This document shows positions 19,929-31,590 of a stretch of DNA of 64,000 nt, piece after piece (the first letter of the stretch is position 1; each line of letters begins with the position of its first letter). Under the pieces are notes generated by a model. That model was not told the DNA's origin and ran no database searches. It worked only from the letters and a program-made list of their open reading frames with translations. This stretch comes from an uncultured Poribacteria bacterium (GTDB lineage Bacteria; Poribacteria; WGA-4E; WGA-3G). The translations under genes were made by a program, and so were the position numbers. The stretch lies in the NCBI GenBank assembly GCA_951813565.1, contig OX638351.1:1824001-1888000 (forward strand), in the 5' to 3' direction.

Positions 19929-21315
19929 GTCATAGCACCCACAGCGTAAACGCTGGGGCTTGTGCTTCGTAGCAGTTAGCGTTGTTCTCCGAAGAGAACA
20001 CCCGTCTCACATCTGCTCCACAAGGGGTTCTAAGCAGCCCCGAAGTATATTGATAGCAGCGTTTATATCTCTATCGTGGTGTGAACCACATTCATTGCAT
20101 ATCCACTGCCTATCTGCAAGAGAAAGATTATTGTTAGAATGTCCGCAGTTGCTACAAGGTTTTGTTGTAGCCATCCATTGCCCGACTTGATGGCATGCAC
20201 GATTATGTTTGAAACATTTGAACTTCAAAATCTCAACGAACTGGTAAAAGCCAAGATCGGAGACTTTACGTCCCCAGAGGCGTTTCATTCCATCAAGGTT
20301 GAGCGTTTCAGTGGCGATAATATCAAAACGTCTGCAGAGGTCAGTGGCAACTTTCCAATGCCAGTCTCTGCGTTGGCTGCTACTTTTGATATAGAGGCGT
20401 GTGAGTTGTCTGATAGCACGATACCAGTTGTTAGAACCTTTAACTTTGCGACTCACGCTTTTATTCAGTTTGCGAAGTTGTTTCAAAGATTGTTTATGGA
20501 ACTGCGGAGACTCTATTTTTTCACCAGTGCTGATTGTCAGAAAAGTTTTCAAACCGAAGTCTACGCCCACGCTCTCACCTGTTTGTTGCATAGGTTCGGT
20601 AGAAGTATTATCGGTGATGATATAGAGCCAGTATTCACCAGCATTATCACGAAGGATTTGGATATATCGGACATCTCCGTGCCAGTTGGGGTGTTGATGG
20701 AAAGAGAACCAAACACGATTGACTTTCAAAGATTTAGAATGCATGTCCCACGATTTGAAAGAGAGACGCACACGCCCATCTTCAAGTTTGTAGCCTGTTT
20801 GGAACTTAGCAGAACGGTATCTATGTTTTCGCTTCGGTTTCGGATGACCGCCTTGACCAGCAAAGAAACGTTGGTATGCGTCATGGATACGGATAATCGC
20901 AGCGTCAAGGGTGTCACGAGGTATCCAAGCCCAATGTTTATGGGTACGTTTCAGCAACTTGGTAAGATGCGGTTGCAACTTGTATCTACCAGCATATTTG
21001 CCGTAGATGCGGTAATATCGCTTTTCAAGACGCAGAAAGTGATTATGCACATCACACAAGTCATCAAGCATGTTGCCCAAACGTTTGTTCTTTGGGTGAT
21101 TGCGTCCCTTATATTTATAGGTTCGCATTACTTTACTCCAGCATTACTTCCGATTCCATTCGGTTTCGGTAGAGACCACCTCATGCGAGGTGGATGGAAT
21201 TCTCTACCTGTAATGCTGAGAATAGTATAACACACTTGGCACATAATTGTCAAGCAAAAAAAGAACGGGCATTCCTCCCCGACCTAAAGCAACGGGGTCT
21301 CCTGCCCGAAGATTG
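19929..21315 (-). mobile_element. Second IS200/IS605-family tnpB-only element
   Basis: Minus strand: TCAT|CAA then hairpin ccccgttgctttaggtcgggg; right hairpin ccccagcgtttacgctgtggg ending tatgac; promoter TTGACA-18-TATACT at 21253-21224. Confidence 0.8.
20007..21128 (-). CDS. tnpB: RNA-guided endonuclease TnpB
   Basis: MRTYKYK start; GVDFGLK, ATETLN, HDRDINAAINIL; CSNC...CNEC. Confidence 0.95.
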   Translation of the reverse strand: MRTYKYKGRNHPKNKRLGNMLDDLCDVHNHFLRLEKRYYRIYGKYAGRYKLQPHLTKLLKRTHKHWAWIPRDTLDAAIIRIHDAYQRFFAGQGGHPKPKRKHRYRSAKFQTGYKLEDGRVRLSFKSWDMHSKSLKVNRVWFSFHQHPNWHGDVRYIQILRDNAGEYWLYIITDNTSTEPMQQTGESVGVDFGLKTFLTISTGEKIESPQFHKQSLKQLRKLNKSVSRKVKGSNNWYRAIRQLTRLYIKSSSQRRDWHWKVATDLCRRFDIIATETLNLDGMKRLWGRKVSDLGFYQFVEILKFKCFKHNRACHQVGQWMATTKPCSNCGHSNNNLSLADRQWICNECGSHHDRDINAAINILRGCLEPLVEQM

Positions 21316-26496: not shown

Positions 26497-29400
26497 ATGT
26501 TCCAAAAAGACATAATCCAGACACAAGGAGAAAAAATGGATTCACGGATCAAACGTTATATCATCACTATTGCAATTTTAGCTATCCTTGCGGGTATTTT
26601 TACCGCCTGGGTCAATATTTATCCAGATTATTTATGGTTTGAGATGGTGGAAAAGATAAACATTTACACCAAAATTCTCACAACAAAAATCTTCGTGGGT
26701 GTAGTCGTTGGGGTTGTCTATCTTGCTATCCTCTTGGTAAATATCTTCATAATTCATCGGTTCACACCTGCACATCTCAGTCCCGCTTTCATGGGCGGCA
26801 CTGAATTCACCGGTGGACAAACCGATACTCGAAAAATGATTTACGGAGGACTTACGCTGCTCGCAATCCTTTTCAGCATTTTAATGGGATATTCAGCGAC
26901 CGATCGATGGGAAGTCTTTTTGCGATATACGCACGCTGAAAATCTAAATTTCCAGTCTGCTACACCTATAGTTGTTGAAAATAACCTCAATTCAGACGAA
27001 ATCACTGTCCCAACGTTAGAACTTGAGGCAAAGAACATACAGGTAGGCGATGAGGTAAACGTTTACATTGATGGGGATGAGCCAATTACCGCACAAGTTG
27101 AAGAGGTAATAACAAGAGGTATTGAACGGGCGGGTGCTCAAAATACAATACCGGTCGGTTTGCGTTTGAACACACCGGTTCAGATAGAGAGTGGACAAAA
27201 AGCGTATTTCACATCACTTGCTCGTGATCCGATTTTTGATAAGGATATTGCCTATTACGTCTTCAAAATGCCGATGGAGCGGTACGTCATCGGCACACTA
27301 TTTGGCATCTTTCTATTAGTTACAATTTTTGCTGTGATTATCTACTTTTTCCATGGATTGATAACAGGTGAAACAAACGAACTTCGCTTTCGCCCGCCTT
27401 TCCGAGTGAAAGCACATCTGTTCACTTTGGTAGGGTTAACACTTATATTCCGCGGTTGGAACTACCGCTATGTAATGTTTGACCTGCTGCATACCTCAAA
27501 CGATGTTGTGCGAGGCGGTGGTGGATACGCTGCAATGAATGCCCGTTACCCTGTTTTATGGATTATGTTGGTAATAACTGGTTTGTGTGCTGCTGTTTTC
27601 ATCATTAGCATCTTCCTGCGGCGCAACACTTTTGCTTTTGCTGGATTCATAATCTTCATAATCGCTGGTTTTGTTGGACAATTGTATCCAAAACTTATAC
27701 AGACATGGCGAGTTGAACCTAACAAACAGGTATTAGAACAGAAATATATTAACTATAATATCAAAGCAACGCTCCATGCTTATGGCTTAGAAAATAATAA
27801 GGTGACCGAAGAAGAGTATCCACTGACAGAGAAACTCTCCTATGCTGACATAACAAGTCCCGAAAATCAGCCTGTTATCAATAGTATCCGCCTCTGGGAT
27901 TGGCGTCCGATACGCAGAATCTTCCGGCAACTGCAAGAATTACGTTCACAGTACGATTTCTATGATGTAGACATTGACAGATACACTGTTAATGACACCA
28001 TTCAGCAAGTGATGCTTTCTGCACGCGAGTTAAACATCAATGAACTCCCGGATGCTGTCAAAAATGATTGGTACAAGCAGACCTATACCTATACGCACGG
28101 CTACGGAGCTGTCGTCAGTCCTGTGAACGAAATTGAGAACGGTAACCCTAATATGTACATCAGAGGATTACCACCTATTGAGTATGAATCCCAATGGCCG
28201 GATAGGTTTAACACAGAACCAGGGCCCCGAATTTACTACGGGGAGCGTACCGACAGGTACGTCATCGTTCATCCAGAACGCACTGAATTAAAACTTGAGT
28301 TCGACTATCCACAAGAGGGTCAACAGTACGTGGACTACGCCTATCAAGGTAATGGAGGTGTGGTGCTATCTTCTTTCTGGCGCAAACTTGTCTACATGCT
28401 CAAGTTTAATAATGAAATTAAGTTTGTCCTACCCGGTGAAATTACATCAGCAAGTAAAGTGCTTTACGAGCGAAATATCAAAAAGCGGATTCACAAGATC
28501 GCTCCCTTCTTGCGCTACGATGGGGACCCGTACGCCGTTATTCATGAGGGGAAACTTGTATGGATAATTGATGCGTATACGATCACGCACCGATACCCTT
28601 ATTCCGTTTCAATGCAAGAGTTTATTCAACGGAGAAGACAACCAGGAGGTGTGAGTCAAAGAGGCGGAGAACCTTGGGGAAACTATATTCGAAATTCTGT
28701 CAAGGTCGTAGTTGATGCTTACGATGGCACAGTTAATTTTTACCTCATTGAACAGGAACGCGATCCGATTGCTGAATGCTATCGCAAGATTTTCCCAGAC
28801 CTTTTCAAGAGTTTTGATGAGATGCCTGCTGACTTAAAAGCACACATACGTTACCCAACTACGATGTTCCTTATCCAGTCTCGTGTCTATCAAGATTATC
28901 ACATGAAAGACCCAATCACATTTTATGCTGGTGAAGACCAATGGGAAATCGGAACGGAATTGTACGACAATACAGACACGCAGATTAGACAAACCAGCAT
29001 GCCGCAGCAAACCAGTCCTCTTACCCCACAACGGATAGTTGAAAAGAGCTTACCCAGTAATGTCCAACCAGTTGAACCTTACTATGTCGTTCTCAGGCTA
29101 CCTGGGGAAGAGAATGCTGAATTTATGTTGATGTTGCCGTTCACACCACGGAATAAACCGAATCTTATCGCATGGCTCGCCGCTCGATGCGATTTACCGC
29201 AATATGGCCAACTCCTTGTCTATCGATTTCCGAAACAGGAATTAGTTTCCGGACCGATGCAGGTTGAAAACTTTATTAGCCAAAAACCTGAAATTTCACA
29301 GCAAATCAGCCTATGGAACACACAAGGCACACGGGTACTTCGCGGCAACCTACTAATTATGCCGATGAATAATTCACTTCTTTATGTGGAACCGATTTAT

Positions 29401-29757
29401 ATCCAATCTGAAGATGAGGCGACCGCAATTCCCGAACTCCGACGCGTCGTTGTTAGCTACGAAGAGAATGACAATCTCCATGTCGTTTGGGGCGAAACGC
29501 TTGATGAAGCACTCAGAGAAATGTTTGTAAGAAGAATAGGAGGGCAAACCGAACTCACGGCTACAGTTGATGGCACACTTGAAGCAACTGACCTCCCAGA
29601 AACCGCTACATCGTTGCGCGGGCTAATTGAGCAGGCAAATAACTATTATAATAGCGCACAACAAGCACAACGCAACGGTAACTGGACAGAATACGGACGC
29701 AATGTTGAACTCTTAGAGCAAACCTTGAAACAACTTGATGCAAACACGCAACAGTAA
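26497..29757 (+). CDS. UPF0182-family membrane protein
   Basis: DYLWF, DPIFDKD, IRLWDWRP, DIDRY, YTHGYG, PRIYYGE, NYIRNSVKVVVDAYDG, PELRRVVV. Confidence 0.92.
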   Translation: MFQKDIIQTQGEKMDSRIKRYIITIAILAILAGIFTAWVNIYPDYLWFEMVEKINIYTKILTTKIFVGVVVGVVYLAILLVNIFIIHRFTPAHLSPAFMGGTEFTGGQTDTRKMIYGGLTLLAILFSILMGYSATDRWEVFLRYTHAENLNFQSATPIVVENNLNSDEITVPTLELEAKNIQVGDEVNVYIDGDEPITAQVEEVITRGIERAGAQNTIPVGLRLNTPVQIESGQKAYFTSLARDPIFDKDIAYYVFKMPMERYVIGTLFGIFLLVTIFAVIIYFFHGLITGETNELRFRPPFRVKAHLFTLVGLTLIFRGWNYRYVMFDLLHTSNDVVRGGGGYAAMNARYPVLWIMLVITGLCAAVFIISIFLRRNTFAFAGFIIFIIAGFVGQLYPKLIQTWRVEPNKQVLEQKYINYNIKATLHAYGLENNKVTEEEYPLTEKLSYADITSPENQPVINSIRLWDWRPIRRIFRQLQELRSQYDFYDVDIDRYTVNDTIQQVMLSARELNINELPDAVKNDWYKQTYTYTHGYGAVVSPVNEIENGNPNMYIRGLPPIEYESQWPDRFNTEPGPRIYYGERTDRYVIVHPERTELKLEFDYPQEGQQYVDYAYQGNGGVVLSSFWRKLVYMLKFNNEIKFVLPGEITSASKVLYERNIKKRIHKIAPFLRYDGDPYAVIHEGKLVWIIDAYTITHRYPYSVSMQEFIQRRRQPGGVSQRGGEPWGNYIRNSVKVVVDAYDGTVNFYLIEQERDPIAECYRKIFPDLFKSFDEMPADLKAHIRYPTTMFLIQSRVYQDYHMKDPITFYAGEDQWEIGTELYDNTDTQIRQTSMPQQTSPLTPQRIVEKSLPSNVQPVEPYYVVLRLPGEENAEFMLMLPFTPRNKPNLIAWLAARCDLPQYGQLLVYRFPKQELVSGPMQVENFISQKPEISQQISLWNTQGTRVLRGNLLIMPMNNSLLYVEPIYIQSEDEATAIPELRRVVVSYEENDNLHVVWGETLDEALREMFVRRIGGQTELTATVDGTLEATDLPETATSLRGLIEQANNYYNSAQQAQRNGNWTEYGRNVELLEQTLKQLDANTQQ

Positions 29758-29817
29758 TCAAGGAATTTCATAATACGGCATGTAAAACCCTACGATTATA
29801 GAGAGGAGGTGAAACAG

Positions 29818-30063
29818 ATGTCTCTTGATTGGAAACCACGTCACAGGGATATGGTAATTGGCGGCATACCTTGGCTCGCAAGAATTTCTGATAAAGCTAA
29901 CGCAAAACTGCAAGGCATCATCGGTGAATACATATATCCGTGACCACAAGATAAAATGTTCCTGGAGGAACATAAGATATCTGCTGAGGATTTTGTTGAA
30001 ATAGTAAAAAACAATCCCTCAGATGATGAAATGATTGCTGCTATAAAGAAGTTGAGCAGTTAA
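29818..30063 (+). CDS. DUF5069-like small protein, probable selenoprotein (UGA codon 42 read as Sec), 81 aa; absent from the ORF track
   Basis: Strong RBS gaggaggtg; MSLDWKPRHRDMVIGGIPWLARISDKANAKLQGIIGEYIYP-U-PQDKMFLEEHKISAEDFVEIVKNNPSDDEMIAAIKKLSS; frame stays open for 39 codons after TGA 29941-29943. Confidence 0.8.
29949..29982 (+). promoter_or_regulatory. Candidate bacterial SECIS element
   Basis: Perfect stem ATGTTCC-TGGA-GGAACAT (29956-29973) starting 12 nt after the UGA; possible lower stem AGATA/TATCT. Confidence 0.7.
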
Positions 30064-30065
30064 CA

Positions 30066-30420
30066 CAATTCCGTCAAATCCGCATGCTTTAGCTTGTGGA
30101 TGTAGACGGGTAACCTGTGCTTGGGCATCACAGACTGCCAGCGAAATTGAAATAGGGGTAATCCCCAATCGTCCTAACCTTTCAAAGTCGGTGGATAGCG
30201 TCCATATCAAGCCAATGCAGCAAGGACTTATCGCGCGGCGTGCCTGGTAGAAAGGGCAGCTGTCCAATGGGTGGAACCAGAGCCAACCCACGACGTTGCG
30301 AAAAACATATTAAACAGGCGGCTAAGCCGCCTAAAGTGGAGCAGACGTAAGACGTTTCTTCGGAAACGCTGACTGCAAGGAAGCACAAGTCCCAGCCTTC
30401 AGGCTGTGGGTCACTATGAC
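30066..30420 (+). mobile_element. Non-autonomous IS200/IS605 mini-element retaining an omegaRNA-like right end
   Basis: Left hairpin tccgcatgctttagcttgtgga; 30336-30420 aligns with the right end of the element at 19929 and also ends TATGAC; no tnpB ORF. Confidence 0.75.
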
Positions 30421-30510
30421 TATCCGGTGGGCTAAAGGCCTACCGGGTATACAATTACAAAGTTATGAAAGTGTGTTTTTACGCGCACAGGAATCCATAG
30501 ACATCGCGCA

Positions 30511-31590
30511 TTGGAGATAGTTTCCGTGGAACTAAAAAAATTACGCGATCAAATTAATAGCATAGACGACCAACTTCTAAATCTTCTTCAAGAACGCGCA
30601 GAGATTTCCAAGAAGATAGGTTCCTTAAAAGCCGACACGGGGAAGGAAATTTATGTACCGCAGCGTGAGTACGAAATTCGTAATCGTCTAAAAACGCAGA
30701 ATCTCGGTATATATCCCAAAGATGCGCTTGACAAAATTTGGACTGAAATTTTTGCTGCTTCACGAGCCGTGCAAACCCCAAATAGGGTTGCTTTCCTCGG
30801 CCCATCAGGTAGTTTTGGACACACGGCAAGCCTATCGTTTTTCGGGCCTTTTGCTGAAATGATTCCGATCACTCCACAGATTGATATCTTTACTGAAGTT
30901 GAAACCGGACGCGCTGATTTTGGCGTGGTAGCAATTGAGAATTCAGTTTACGGCACTGTCCGGGACGTTTTAGAACGTTTTCAACACACATCTATGAAAA
31001 TCTGTGCAGAAATTTACCAACCTATCAGACACCATCTCATCTCAAAATTTCCGCTTCCTGAGGTTCAGCGTGTCTATTCCCACAGCCAACCCTTTGCCCA
31101 ATGTAGAATGTGGCTGAATAAATATATGAAATCAGTGGAACAGGTTGAAGTTGTCAGTACGTCTGATGCTGCACAACGCGCAGCAGATGAACCAAACGCT
31201 GCAGCAATCGCAAGTAAGCTGGCAAGTGAAATCTACGAGGTCCCTGTGATAGCGGATTCTATCATGGACGAACCGAATAACACGACTCGTTTTTTTATTA
31301 TTGGCGACCAAATAGTTGGCAAAAGTGGCAATGATTGCACATCTATCTTTTTTGCAATTAAAGACAAAGTCGGGGCATTGTATGAAATCTTGGGTGTCTT
31401 AGTAAAATATCAATTAAGCCTTAGTTATTTACAATCGCTTCCTTCGCGCACCGAACCGTGGGAATATATCTTTTTTGCTGATATTGATGGACATATTGAT
31501 GATGACAACGTTCATTCTGTCGTTGAACAGCTTGAGGATTTATGTCAGGATGTCAAAATCCTCGGTTCTTACCCACGCGGTGCAAAATAG
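30511..31590 (+). CDS. pheA: Chorismate mutase/prephenate dehydratase (P-protein); true start may be GTG ~30526
   Basis: LRDQINSIDDQLLNLLQERA, AFLGPSGSF, AIENS, NTTRFF, ACT domain, LGSYP. Confidence 0.95.
   Translation: MEIVSVELKKLRDQINSIDDQLLNLLQERAEISKKIGSLKADTGKEIYVPQREYEIRNRLKTQNLGIYPKDALDKIWTEIFAASRAVQTPNRVAFLGPSGSFGHTASLSFFGPFAEMIPITPQIDIFTEVETGRADFGVVAIENSVYGTVRDVLERFQHTSMKICAEIYQPIRHHLISKFPLPEVQRVYSHSQPFAQCRMWLNKYMKSVEQVEVVSTSDAAQRAADEPNAAAIASKLASEIYEVPVIADSIMDEPNNTTRFFIIGDQIVGKSGNDCTSIFFAIKDKVGALYEILGVLVKYQLSLSYLQSLPSRTEPWEYIFFADIDGHIDDDNVHSVVEQLEDLCQDVKILGSYPRGAK

Follow-up and report, generated by a model that had tools for sequence, protein, structure and literature searches.

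The gene for a short DUF5069 protein in the window (by which we mean the whole stretch of 64,000 nucleotides of poribacterial DNA that was analysed) is a real, mis-annotated and widespread selenoprotein gene, encoding a selenocysteine (Sec) variant of a family of unknown function. By computation its codon 42, an in-frame UGA, is almost certainly Sec, decoded via a SelB-bound hairpin with a UGGA loop. Taken alone, the window sequence offers modest evidence: at least 39 open codons follow about 15% of ordinary stops, and a G-loop hairpin of at least 7 bp arose by chance in 8% of 20,000 random synonymous-codon draws. It is conservation, that of the TGA, of the frozen hairpin codons and of a downstream frame under purifying selection, which carries the case beyond chance.

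The reading frame (Table 1) starts with an ATG, runs over 41 codons ending in GEYIYP to the TGA, and after 39 further sense codons is closed by a TAA at 30061-30063. All of this, together with the ribosome-binding site, had been given in the preliminary description of the locus, and every detail is present in the sequence; GGAGG-type sites also lie ahead of most of the orthologs listed. The same description had claimed that similarity to DUF5069 continues past the UGA, and the Pfam profile search of the read-through product agrees, since the match to PF16798 (DUF5069) covers residues 7-78 and spans both sides of the UGA with an E-value of 1.9e-14 and 54.4 bits (cut-off 27). Only positions 4-75 of the 133 profile positions are covered, the full 133-position domain not being reached, and therefore the window protein represents a short form of DUF5069. 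It has no Cys besides position 42 and neither a CxxU nor a UxxC/S/T motif (YIYPUPQD). The closest named homologs among the matches listed are titled Candidatus Poribacteria and share 66-96% identity. The expectation that standard gene callers miss such a gene is borne out by the public catalogues, which give either a 41-aa hypothetical protein, as in the NCBI records, or a Trp version on short contigs; one relative is annotated with a 47-aa ORF starting at M47.

Table 1. Coordinates of the short DUF5069 selenoprotein gene, its RNA elements, its neighbours and the kinase gene of the same genome (window positions unless a contig is named).
Feature	Position	Strand	Basis or remark
Shine-Dalgarno AGGAGGTG	29804..29811	+	6 nt ahead of ATG; sequence inspection
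Short-form DUF5069 selenoprotein gene, 81 aa (U42)	29818..30063	+	translation, Pfam match, orthologs in 168/176 phylum genomes, model fit to 3OMD
In-frame UGA, Sec codon 42 by computation, motif YIYP-U-PQD	29941..29943	+	61/61 orthologs TGA; Cys in 116/166 homologs
Upper stem-loop of the SECIS (7 bp, UGGA loop), within codons M47-H52	29956..29973	+	fold, frozen synonymous sites, covariation, loss in Cys orthologs
Extended hairpin with weak lower stem (29949-29953 with 29978-29982)	29949..29982	+	single-sequence fold; absent from consensus fold
UPF0182 membrane protein, upstream neighbour	26497..29757	+	adjoins gene in 44/104 loci, Poribacteria only
pheA (chorismate mutase/prephenate dehydratase), downstream neighbour	30511..31590	+	39/104 loci; 6/8 Cys orthologs of family f8
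Multi-copy non-coding repeat between gene and pheA	30071..30420	.	61 blastn matches in genome, self included
APH-fold kinase of this genome	contig C1 2707475-2708566	-	family found in 167/176 phylum genomes

Codon 42 is TGA in every ortholog of the order, for which 61 genomes were drawn and all had the gene. Across the phylum, in a tally over several searches, 160 genomes have a TGA form and eight a Cys form; the 150 phylum matches listed, from 149 genomes, each contain one TGA. When the corresponding column was inspected in 166 database homologs we found Cys in 116, Ser in 15 and Trp in 13, while 14 were cut at the codon and eight had other residues or were unaligned. These counts and the YNCPLD of PDB 3OMD uphold the earlier proposal that the UGA falls on the Cys of the family. 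Those Trp versions for which the length of the contig is recorded (n = 12) all come from contigs of 530-1237 bases and, seen together with the 41-aa records, they are therefore artefacts of gene callers (code switching). Because Ser occupies column 42 in some members, the long paralogs of this genome among them, the DUF5069 fold is not always dependent on sulfur or selenium, and the sequences suggest that the long DUF5069 forms may do something else. The frame downstream of the UGA is under purifying selection, with a pN/pS of 0.185 after the UGA vs 0.116 before it in a crude pairwise count. A DNA contig of another strain has 27 differences over 29890-30055, and of those listed none touches the UGA or falls within the hairpin. 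No RNA run is listed as containing the sequence; two sequencing runs which we guessed to be RNA gave only short contigs of relatives and are not taken as evidence of expression.

The perfect 7-bp hairpin with a G in its loop that had been reported 12 nt after the UGA is present exactly as described (ATGTTCC-TGGA-GGAACAT), its loop starting 19 nt past the UGA. We compared it with the bSECIS consensus as set out in the legend of Fig. 2A of PMC13188914, where the loop has 3-9 nt with G within its first two nucleotides, the stem 4-16 bp, the distance from the UGA is 16-37 nt and the MFE at most -7.5. The loop of 4 nt (UGGA), the stem of 7 bp, the spacing of 19 nt and the MFE of -10.3 kcal/mol all lie within this model. 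Folding of 70 nt gives a z-score of -1.35 and folding of 45 nt one of -3.09, and the RNAalifold consensus keeps only the five inner pairs.

At the RNA level the hairpin is under selection. Codons 48-51 read TTC CTG GAG GAA in 60 of the 61 orthologs, the lone TTG retaining a G-U pair, and pS at these codons is 0.014 vs 0.71-0.76 elsewhere; from the codon usage of the genome this string would be expected at 0.8%. They encode the invariant residues FLEE. Among 44 well-conserved codons, only codons 6 and 11 are degenerate ones that are equally fixed elsewhere in the gene. The three outer pairs have changed on both sides, in some cases with amino-acid changes, and the covariation score exceeds that of 500 out of 500 shuffles and of every slid control, on a basis of seven cells from a few related genera, with 21 of 343 cells breaking the two outermost pairs. 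A conserved hairpin in close relatives, named beforehand as a check, was thus found, as the TGA forms keep a covarying one.

A G-loop hairpin of at least 4 bp follows the TGA in 61/61 genes of the order, in 119/120 matches listed from the GTDB scan described below and in 4/4 others, compared with a background of 47 in 440 ordinary TGA stops and 1290 in 11201 Cys codons. None of the eight Cys orthologs has one, and one Cys gene folds a stem with a CUC loop. These eight, all from family f8 and all with TGC or TGT, are the best control for a hairpin that tracks the Sec state, six of them being located at the same place before pheA and seven of the eight genomes retaining selA. A scan for promoters and terminators found nothing on the plus strand and, on the minus strand, flagged the hairpin as resembling a terminator; we rejected a terminator as the cause of conservation, because the presence of the hairpin follows the Sec/Cys state. 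A scan of 29700-30600 with Rfam found no family of note.

SelA, SelB, SelD and the tRNA-Sec (selC), the search for which had been proposed as a test, are all found in the genome above cut-offs, and its selD itself contains an in-frame TGA. The tRNA-Sec folds in the 8/5 manner, with UCA as its anticodon, G as discriminator and a long variable arm, and none of the other tRNAs among the 49 has UCA. Since TGA ends 440 of 2265 long ORFs, the genome uses code table 11. Its tRNA-Sec gene follows selB directly on the 3' side, and the frame of the next ORF begins inside the 3' end of the tRNA.

Two other readings of the UGA have to be weighed against decoding as Sec. If it were a true stop, the locus would be a pseudogene or would encode a 41-aa peptide, and what lies downstream would be a relic or another ORF, in line with the 41-aa protein of the catalogues and the ORF from M47 in one relative. 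However, the codon is always TGA and never TAA or TAG in 61 orthologs, though TGA provides only the above minority of stops, the part behind it is under purifying selection, M47 is kept in only 40/61, and a stop would sever the predicted four-helix fold after helix 1, so that we regard this reading as extremely improbable. Hardly more credit can be given to a genome-wide reassignment in which UGA would stand for Trp or Gly (table 4 or 25), or to a suppressor tRNA that reads it as Cys. The Trp in 13 database homologs would fit the former, but the 12 with a recorded length sit on the short contigs already mentioned, UGA terminates 440 long ORFs, 11 of the 61 orthologs themselves end on TGA, and the only tRNA with a UCA anticodon is the 8/5 tRNA-Sec with its discriminator G beside selB. 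Decoding as Sec is the reading which we follow from here on.

A pattern scan of GTDB for TGA forms returned at least 120 loci; in its taxa this set overlaps with that of the phylum, and its titles may lag behind the taxonomy. The 120 matches listed are all true homologs (worst E-value 6.5e-19), and 106 of them have the same 12-nt hairpin core. By their titles 51 of these matches belong to Latescibacterota, 41 to Poribacteria, 12 to Gemmatimonadota, six to Chloroflexota, two each to Planctomycetota and Bacillota and one to Alphaproteobacteria, and five are unclassified. The TGA forms of Chloroflexota and Bacillota have different G-loop hairpins at the same place; one Planctomycetota TGA form shows no hairpin by the rule used. 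Four out of five TGA-form genomes picked from other phyla contain selA and tRNA-Sec. The bin titled Alphaproteobacteria holds a Latescibacterota-like TGA locus, and neither selA nor tRNA-Sec was found in it; this locus is probably a mis-binned contig. The class of one Chloroflexota genome has a DUF5069 match in 92 of 98 genomes, ten of them with TGA; selA is present in all ten TGA genomes, and the eight out of 64 tested genomes without selA all have no-stop forms.

In a tree of 73 rows (column masked, 86 columns), from which near-duplicates and truncated rows were left out, seven changes between Sec and Cys are counted, at least four of which are forced by starred branches. A starred clade uniting Poribacteria and Latescibacterota includes 32 Sec and nine Cys forms. 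Because the columns are few and rows were left out, the order of these events is weakly determined. In complete genes of the short subfamily the UGA is followed by 38-56 residues. A search of the PLSDB plasmids with one Cys form of the protein gave no homolog.

The AlphaFold model of the window protein (pLDDT 89.6) has helices at 20-32, 43-51, 56-65 and 69-80 and one small hairpin, and places residue 42 just ahead of helix 43-51. It fits residues 4-82 of 3OMD with a Z-score of 13.1 and an rmsd of 1.2 (79 aligned residues, 35% identity; next match Z 3.5), Foldseek gives a TMq of 0.85 to the same structure, and in structural searches of the model no fold besides 3OMD stood out. The window protein is thus predicted to comprise the N-terminal half of the DUF5069 fold, with four helices. 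PDB 3OMD is a protein of unknown function from Leptospirillum rubarum, and its title names no ligand.

P7, R8, W19, R22, D25, K26, A29, Y38, D45, L49 and F59 are invariant in 112 Sec sequences, a tally which covers 112 of the 120 matches listed (eight were dropped as truncated or out of register) and in which several positions, R22, D25 and K26 among them, were fixed by the search pattern. In a wider alignment R22, D25, K26, D45 and D69 reach 90% or more. A second Cys is absent in 85 of the 112, and there is no conserved His. Fusions to cupin and DUF2249 domains occur among the Cys homologs. The other DUF5069 genes of this genome (contig C1, 2772061-2773345 and 1590894-1591317) encode a three-repeat protein of 427 aa and a protein of 140 aa, and Ser stands at the column in each of the four domains; the 140-aa gene sits among genes for NADH-dehydrogenase-like subunits. 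We also noted a subfamily of 175-180 aa in which a short DUF5069 unit with a CGGD/CAGD motif stands behind an N-terminal domain of about 95 aa.

The two genes that flank the Sec gene on either side in the window, UPF0182 and pheA, were rejected as functional partners, because they are found only beside Poribacteria loci and reflect lineage synteny; pheA marks the syntenic position common to the Sec gene and the Cys orthologs. The repeat in front of pheA is an insertion and stands outside the selenoprotein system. It contains palindromes and presumably resembles the ends of IS200/IS605 elements, and a 373-aa ORF at window positions 20007-21128 on the minus strand is, as we take it, similar to an IS605-type TnpB.

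A kinase-like gene of 345 aa lies directly upstream in 25 of 104 loci with flanks. This arrangement occurs in 22/24 loci of one Latescibacterota-type clade, many of them with an ATGA overlap, and in 3/3 Chloroflexota loci, and in 0/23 loci of the other Latescibacterota-type clade and 0/28 loci titled Poribacteria. Within the Chloroflexota-titled class 76 of the 88 genomes with both genes have the kinase directly upstream, for Sec and Cys forms alike, a count that leaves out two genomes with only weak paralog matches. It is found directly upstream in one Limnochordia genome too, where a sulfhydrylase-like ORF, which we take to be O-acetylhomoserine sulfhydrylase-like, the kinase and the Sec gene follow each other in this order on the minus strand. 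In the own phylum the kinase is unlinked and present in 167 of 176 genomes; the same six genomes, which belong to three families, lack both the kinase and the DUF5069 gene. Three of these six genomes are also without selA, and since the families are related these shared absences amount to few independent events. Searches of 18 further TGA-form genomes gave a strong kinase match in 14, a weak one in two and none in two. The copy in the genome of the window is oriented divergently from what is presumably an rpsB-tsf-frr-like cluster.

The partner has the invariant kinase residues K, E, D and N in 24/24 rows and matches the corramycin phosphotransferase PDB 8AGY, its best solved relative, in an HMM comparison (E-value 5.9e-11). 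Its top Foldseek matches all have the APH/choline-kinase fold, PF01636 is detected in eight of 24 members, and its top Atlas clusters are 'hypothetical' proteins of Latescibacterota and Poribacteria. A complex prediction for a natural pair of kinase and small Cys protein scored 0.00 in two runs, which speaks neither for nor against binding. Reductase neighbours vary by lineage: in family f4 a fusion of Grx and TrxR is located directly upstream of the Sec gene (7/7 genomes), and 14 loci have an FNR-like gene directly downstream.

By computation, SelB almost certainly binds the UGGA-loop hairpin 19 nt past the UGA and delivers Sec-tRNA, so that Sec is inserted at codon 42. From established selenoprotein chemistry and the position at the start of a helix we infer that U42 would be a single reactive selenolate with no second Cys. 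It may become oxidised or modified and be recycled by an outside reductase, such as glutaredoxin/thioredoxin reductase or an FNR-type flavoprotein. Gene order and co-occurrence make it likely that the short DUF5069 protein serves the pathway of the APH-fold kinase, in which it may act as an accessory or as a redox switch. Of the chemistries ranked, a one-selenol redox nucleophile comes out as the most probable, with a chance somewhat below even, and a chemistry that is neither redox nor phosphoryl nor metal appears quite unlikely.

Alternatively, Sec or Cys at position 42 might accept or displace a phosphoryl group, the kinase phosphorylating a substrate or the small protein; the invariant Arg and Lys would bind the phosphate and Asp might act as acid/base, by analogy with Cys-dependent phosphatases and arsenate reductases, which use comparable Cys/phosphate chemistry. 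For this speak the invariance of R8, W19, R22, D25, K26, Y38 and D45 in the 112 sequences tallied, the kinase residues and APH fold of the partner, and the one locus behind the sulfhydrylase-like ORF. The structural matches other than 3OMD, however, include no phosphatase fold, and long DUF5069 forms are widespread, so that we hold the phosphoryl chemistry to be rather unlikely. Still less probable is that U42 ligates a metal (Cu, Zn, Hg or an Fe-S cluster) which subunits might share. The cupin and DUF2249 fusions of Cys homologs would be compatible with a metal site, and several of the predicted selenoprotein families in Table 1 of PMC13188914 bind metals, but most Sec sequences have no second Cys, no His is conserved, the title of 3OMD gives no ligand and the conserved neighbours include no metal-resistance genes.

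The redox nucleophile is therefore kept as the preferred chemistry. If, which we consider possible only with clear reservation, DUF5069 and the APH-fold kinase formed an undescribed two-part system, in which a phosphoryl group made by the kinase is taken up or displaced by Sec on a new helical fold, nearly all Poribacteria and Latescibacterota and nearly all members of one Chloroflexota class would have this system. A selenoprotein would then do phospho-chemistry or gate a kinase rather than engage in the classical exchange of thiols and disulfides, and Sec would have been gained or lost several times within the family.

The short form of DUF5069 is an unlisted addition to the bacterial selenoproteins, its recoding mechanism being a known one. 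NCBIfam has no model for the family. Deng et al. 2026 reportedly describe unvalidated new selenoprotein candidates, and their supplements could hold the family, which our literature searches (DUF5069, 3OMD, Poribacteria selenocysteine, selenoproteome Latescibacter) did not find named. DUF5069 is absent from the inventory of 119 selenoprotein families in Table 1 of PMC13188914, and the text passages and four supplements seen of PMC12013277 do not contain it either. With it the bacterial selenoproteome gains a new family and fold, which is common in that 160 of 176 phylum genomes and at least four other phylum labels have it, and whose entries in public records are hypothetical proteins of 41 aa or have a false Trp. 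Because Sec marks the working residue of a crystallised family of unknown function, DUF5069 becomes testable, and natural Cys orthologs can be expressed by standard means. The conserved kinase neighbour is a concrete candidate partner, and the syntenic Sec and Cys orthologs represent a natural experiment on retention vs loss of a SECIS inside a coding sequence.

A de novo SECIS scan of the genome used a narrow pattern and does not give a full selenoproteome. Contig C1 carries on its plus strand, around 2853089-2858026, a tandem pair of paralogous ORFs (526 aa and about 680 aa), both of which have a TGA in frame (SCUGSG / ACUGSG) and a G-loop hairpin; the motif is reminiscent of animal selenoprotein N. 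The tandem ORFs have no NCBIfam match, and their family is absent from the 119-family table of PMC13188914. A literature search for selenoprotein N together with Poribacter gave no match. Near 879948 of contig C1, on the minus strand, a frame of 500 codons ends with WFC-TGA-AEP and ten more codons, has a 5-bp hairpin and looks to us like a radical SAM selenoprotein with a CUAEP tail.

Comparing the window gene with known systems, it resembles SelB-dependent genes with an intragenic SECIS in having its UGA at a conserved Cys column, selABCD in the genome and Cys homologs elsewhere, and also in the 4-nt loop with GG at positions 2-3, the 7-bp stem and the 19-nt spacing. It differs from known selenoprotein families in its YxYP-U-PxD motif without a CxxU/UxxC partner, and probably from the thioredoxin-like CxxU/UxxC oxidoreductases in its fold, its product being modelled as a small, helical protein. 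With the APH/choline-kinase phosphotransferases the partner shares the fold and the catalytic Lys, Glu, Asp and Asn, from which its activity is predicted. In contrast to them, it forms a separate family that is single-copy and nearly universal in its lineages, and has the loop G-[SP]-x-D-x-N-A-x-N instead of HGD, the usual loop of APH-type kinases. With 3OMD and PF16798 the window protein has in common the motif PR...R..DKARA...G..GEY.Y.CP.D, the Pfam score and the fold, whereas it carries Sec for Cys, is only 81 aa long without the last 55-60 profile positions, and is tied to the gene of an APH-fold kinase.
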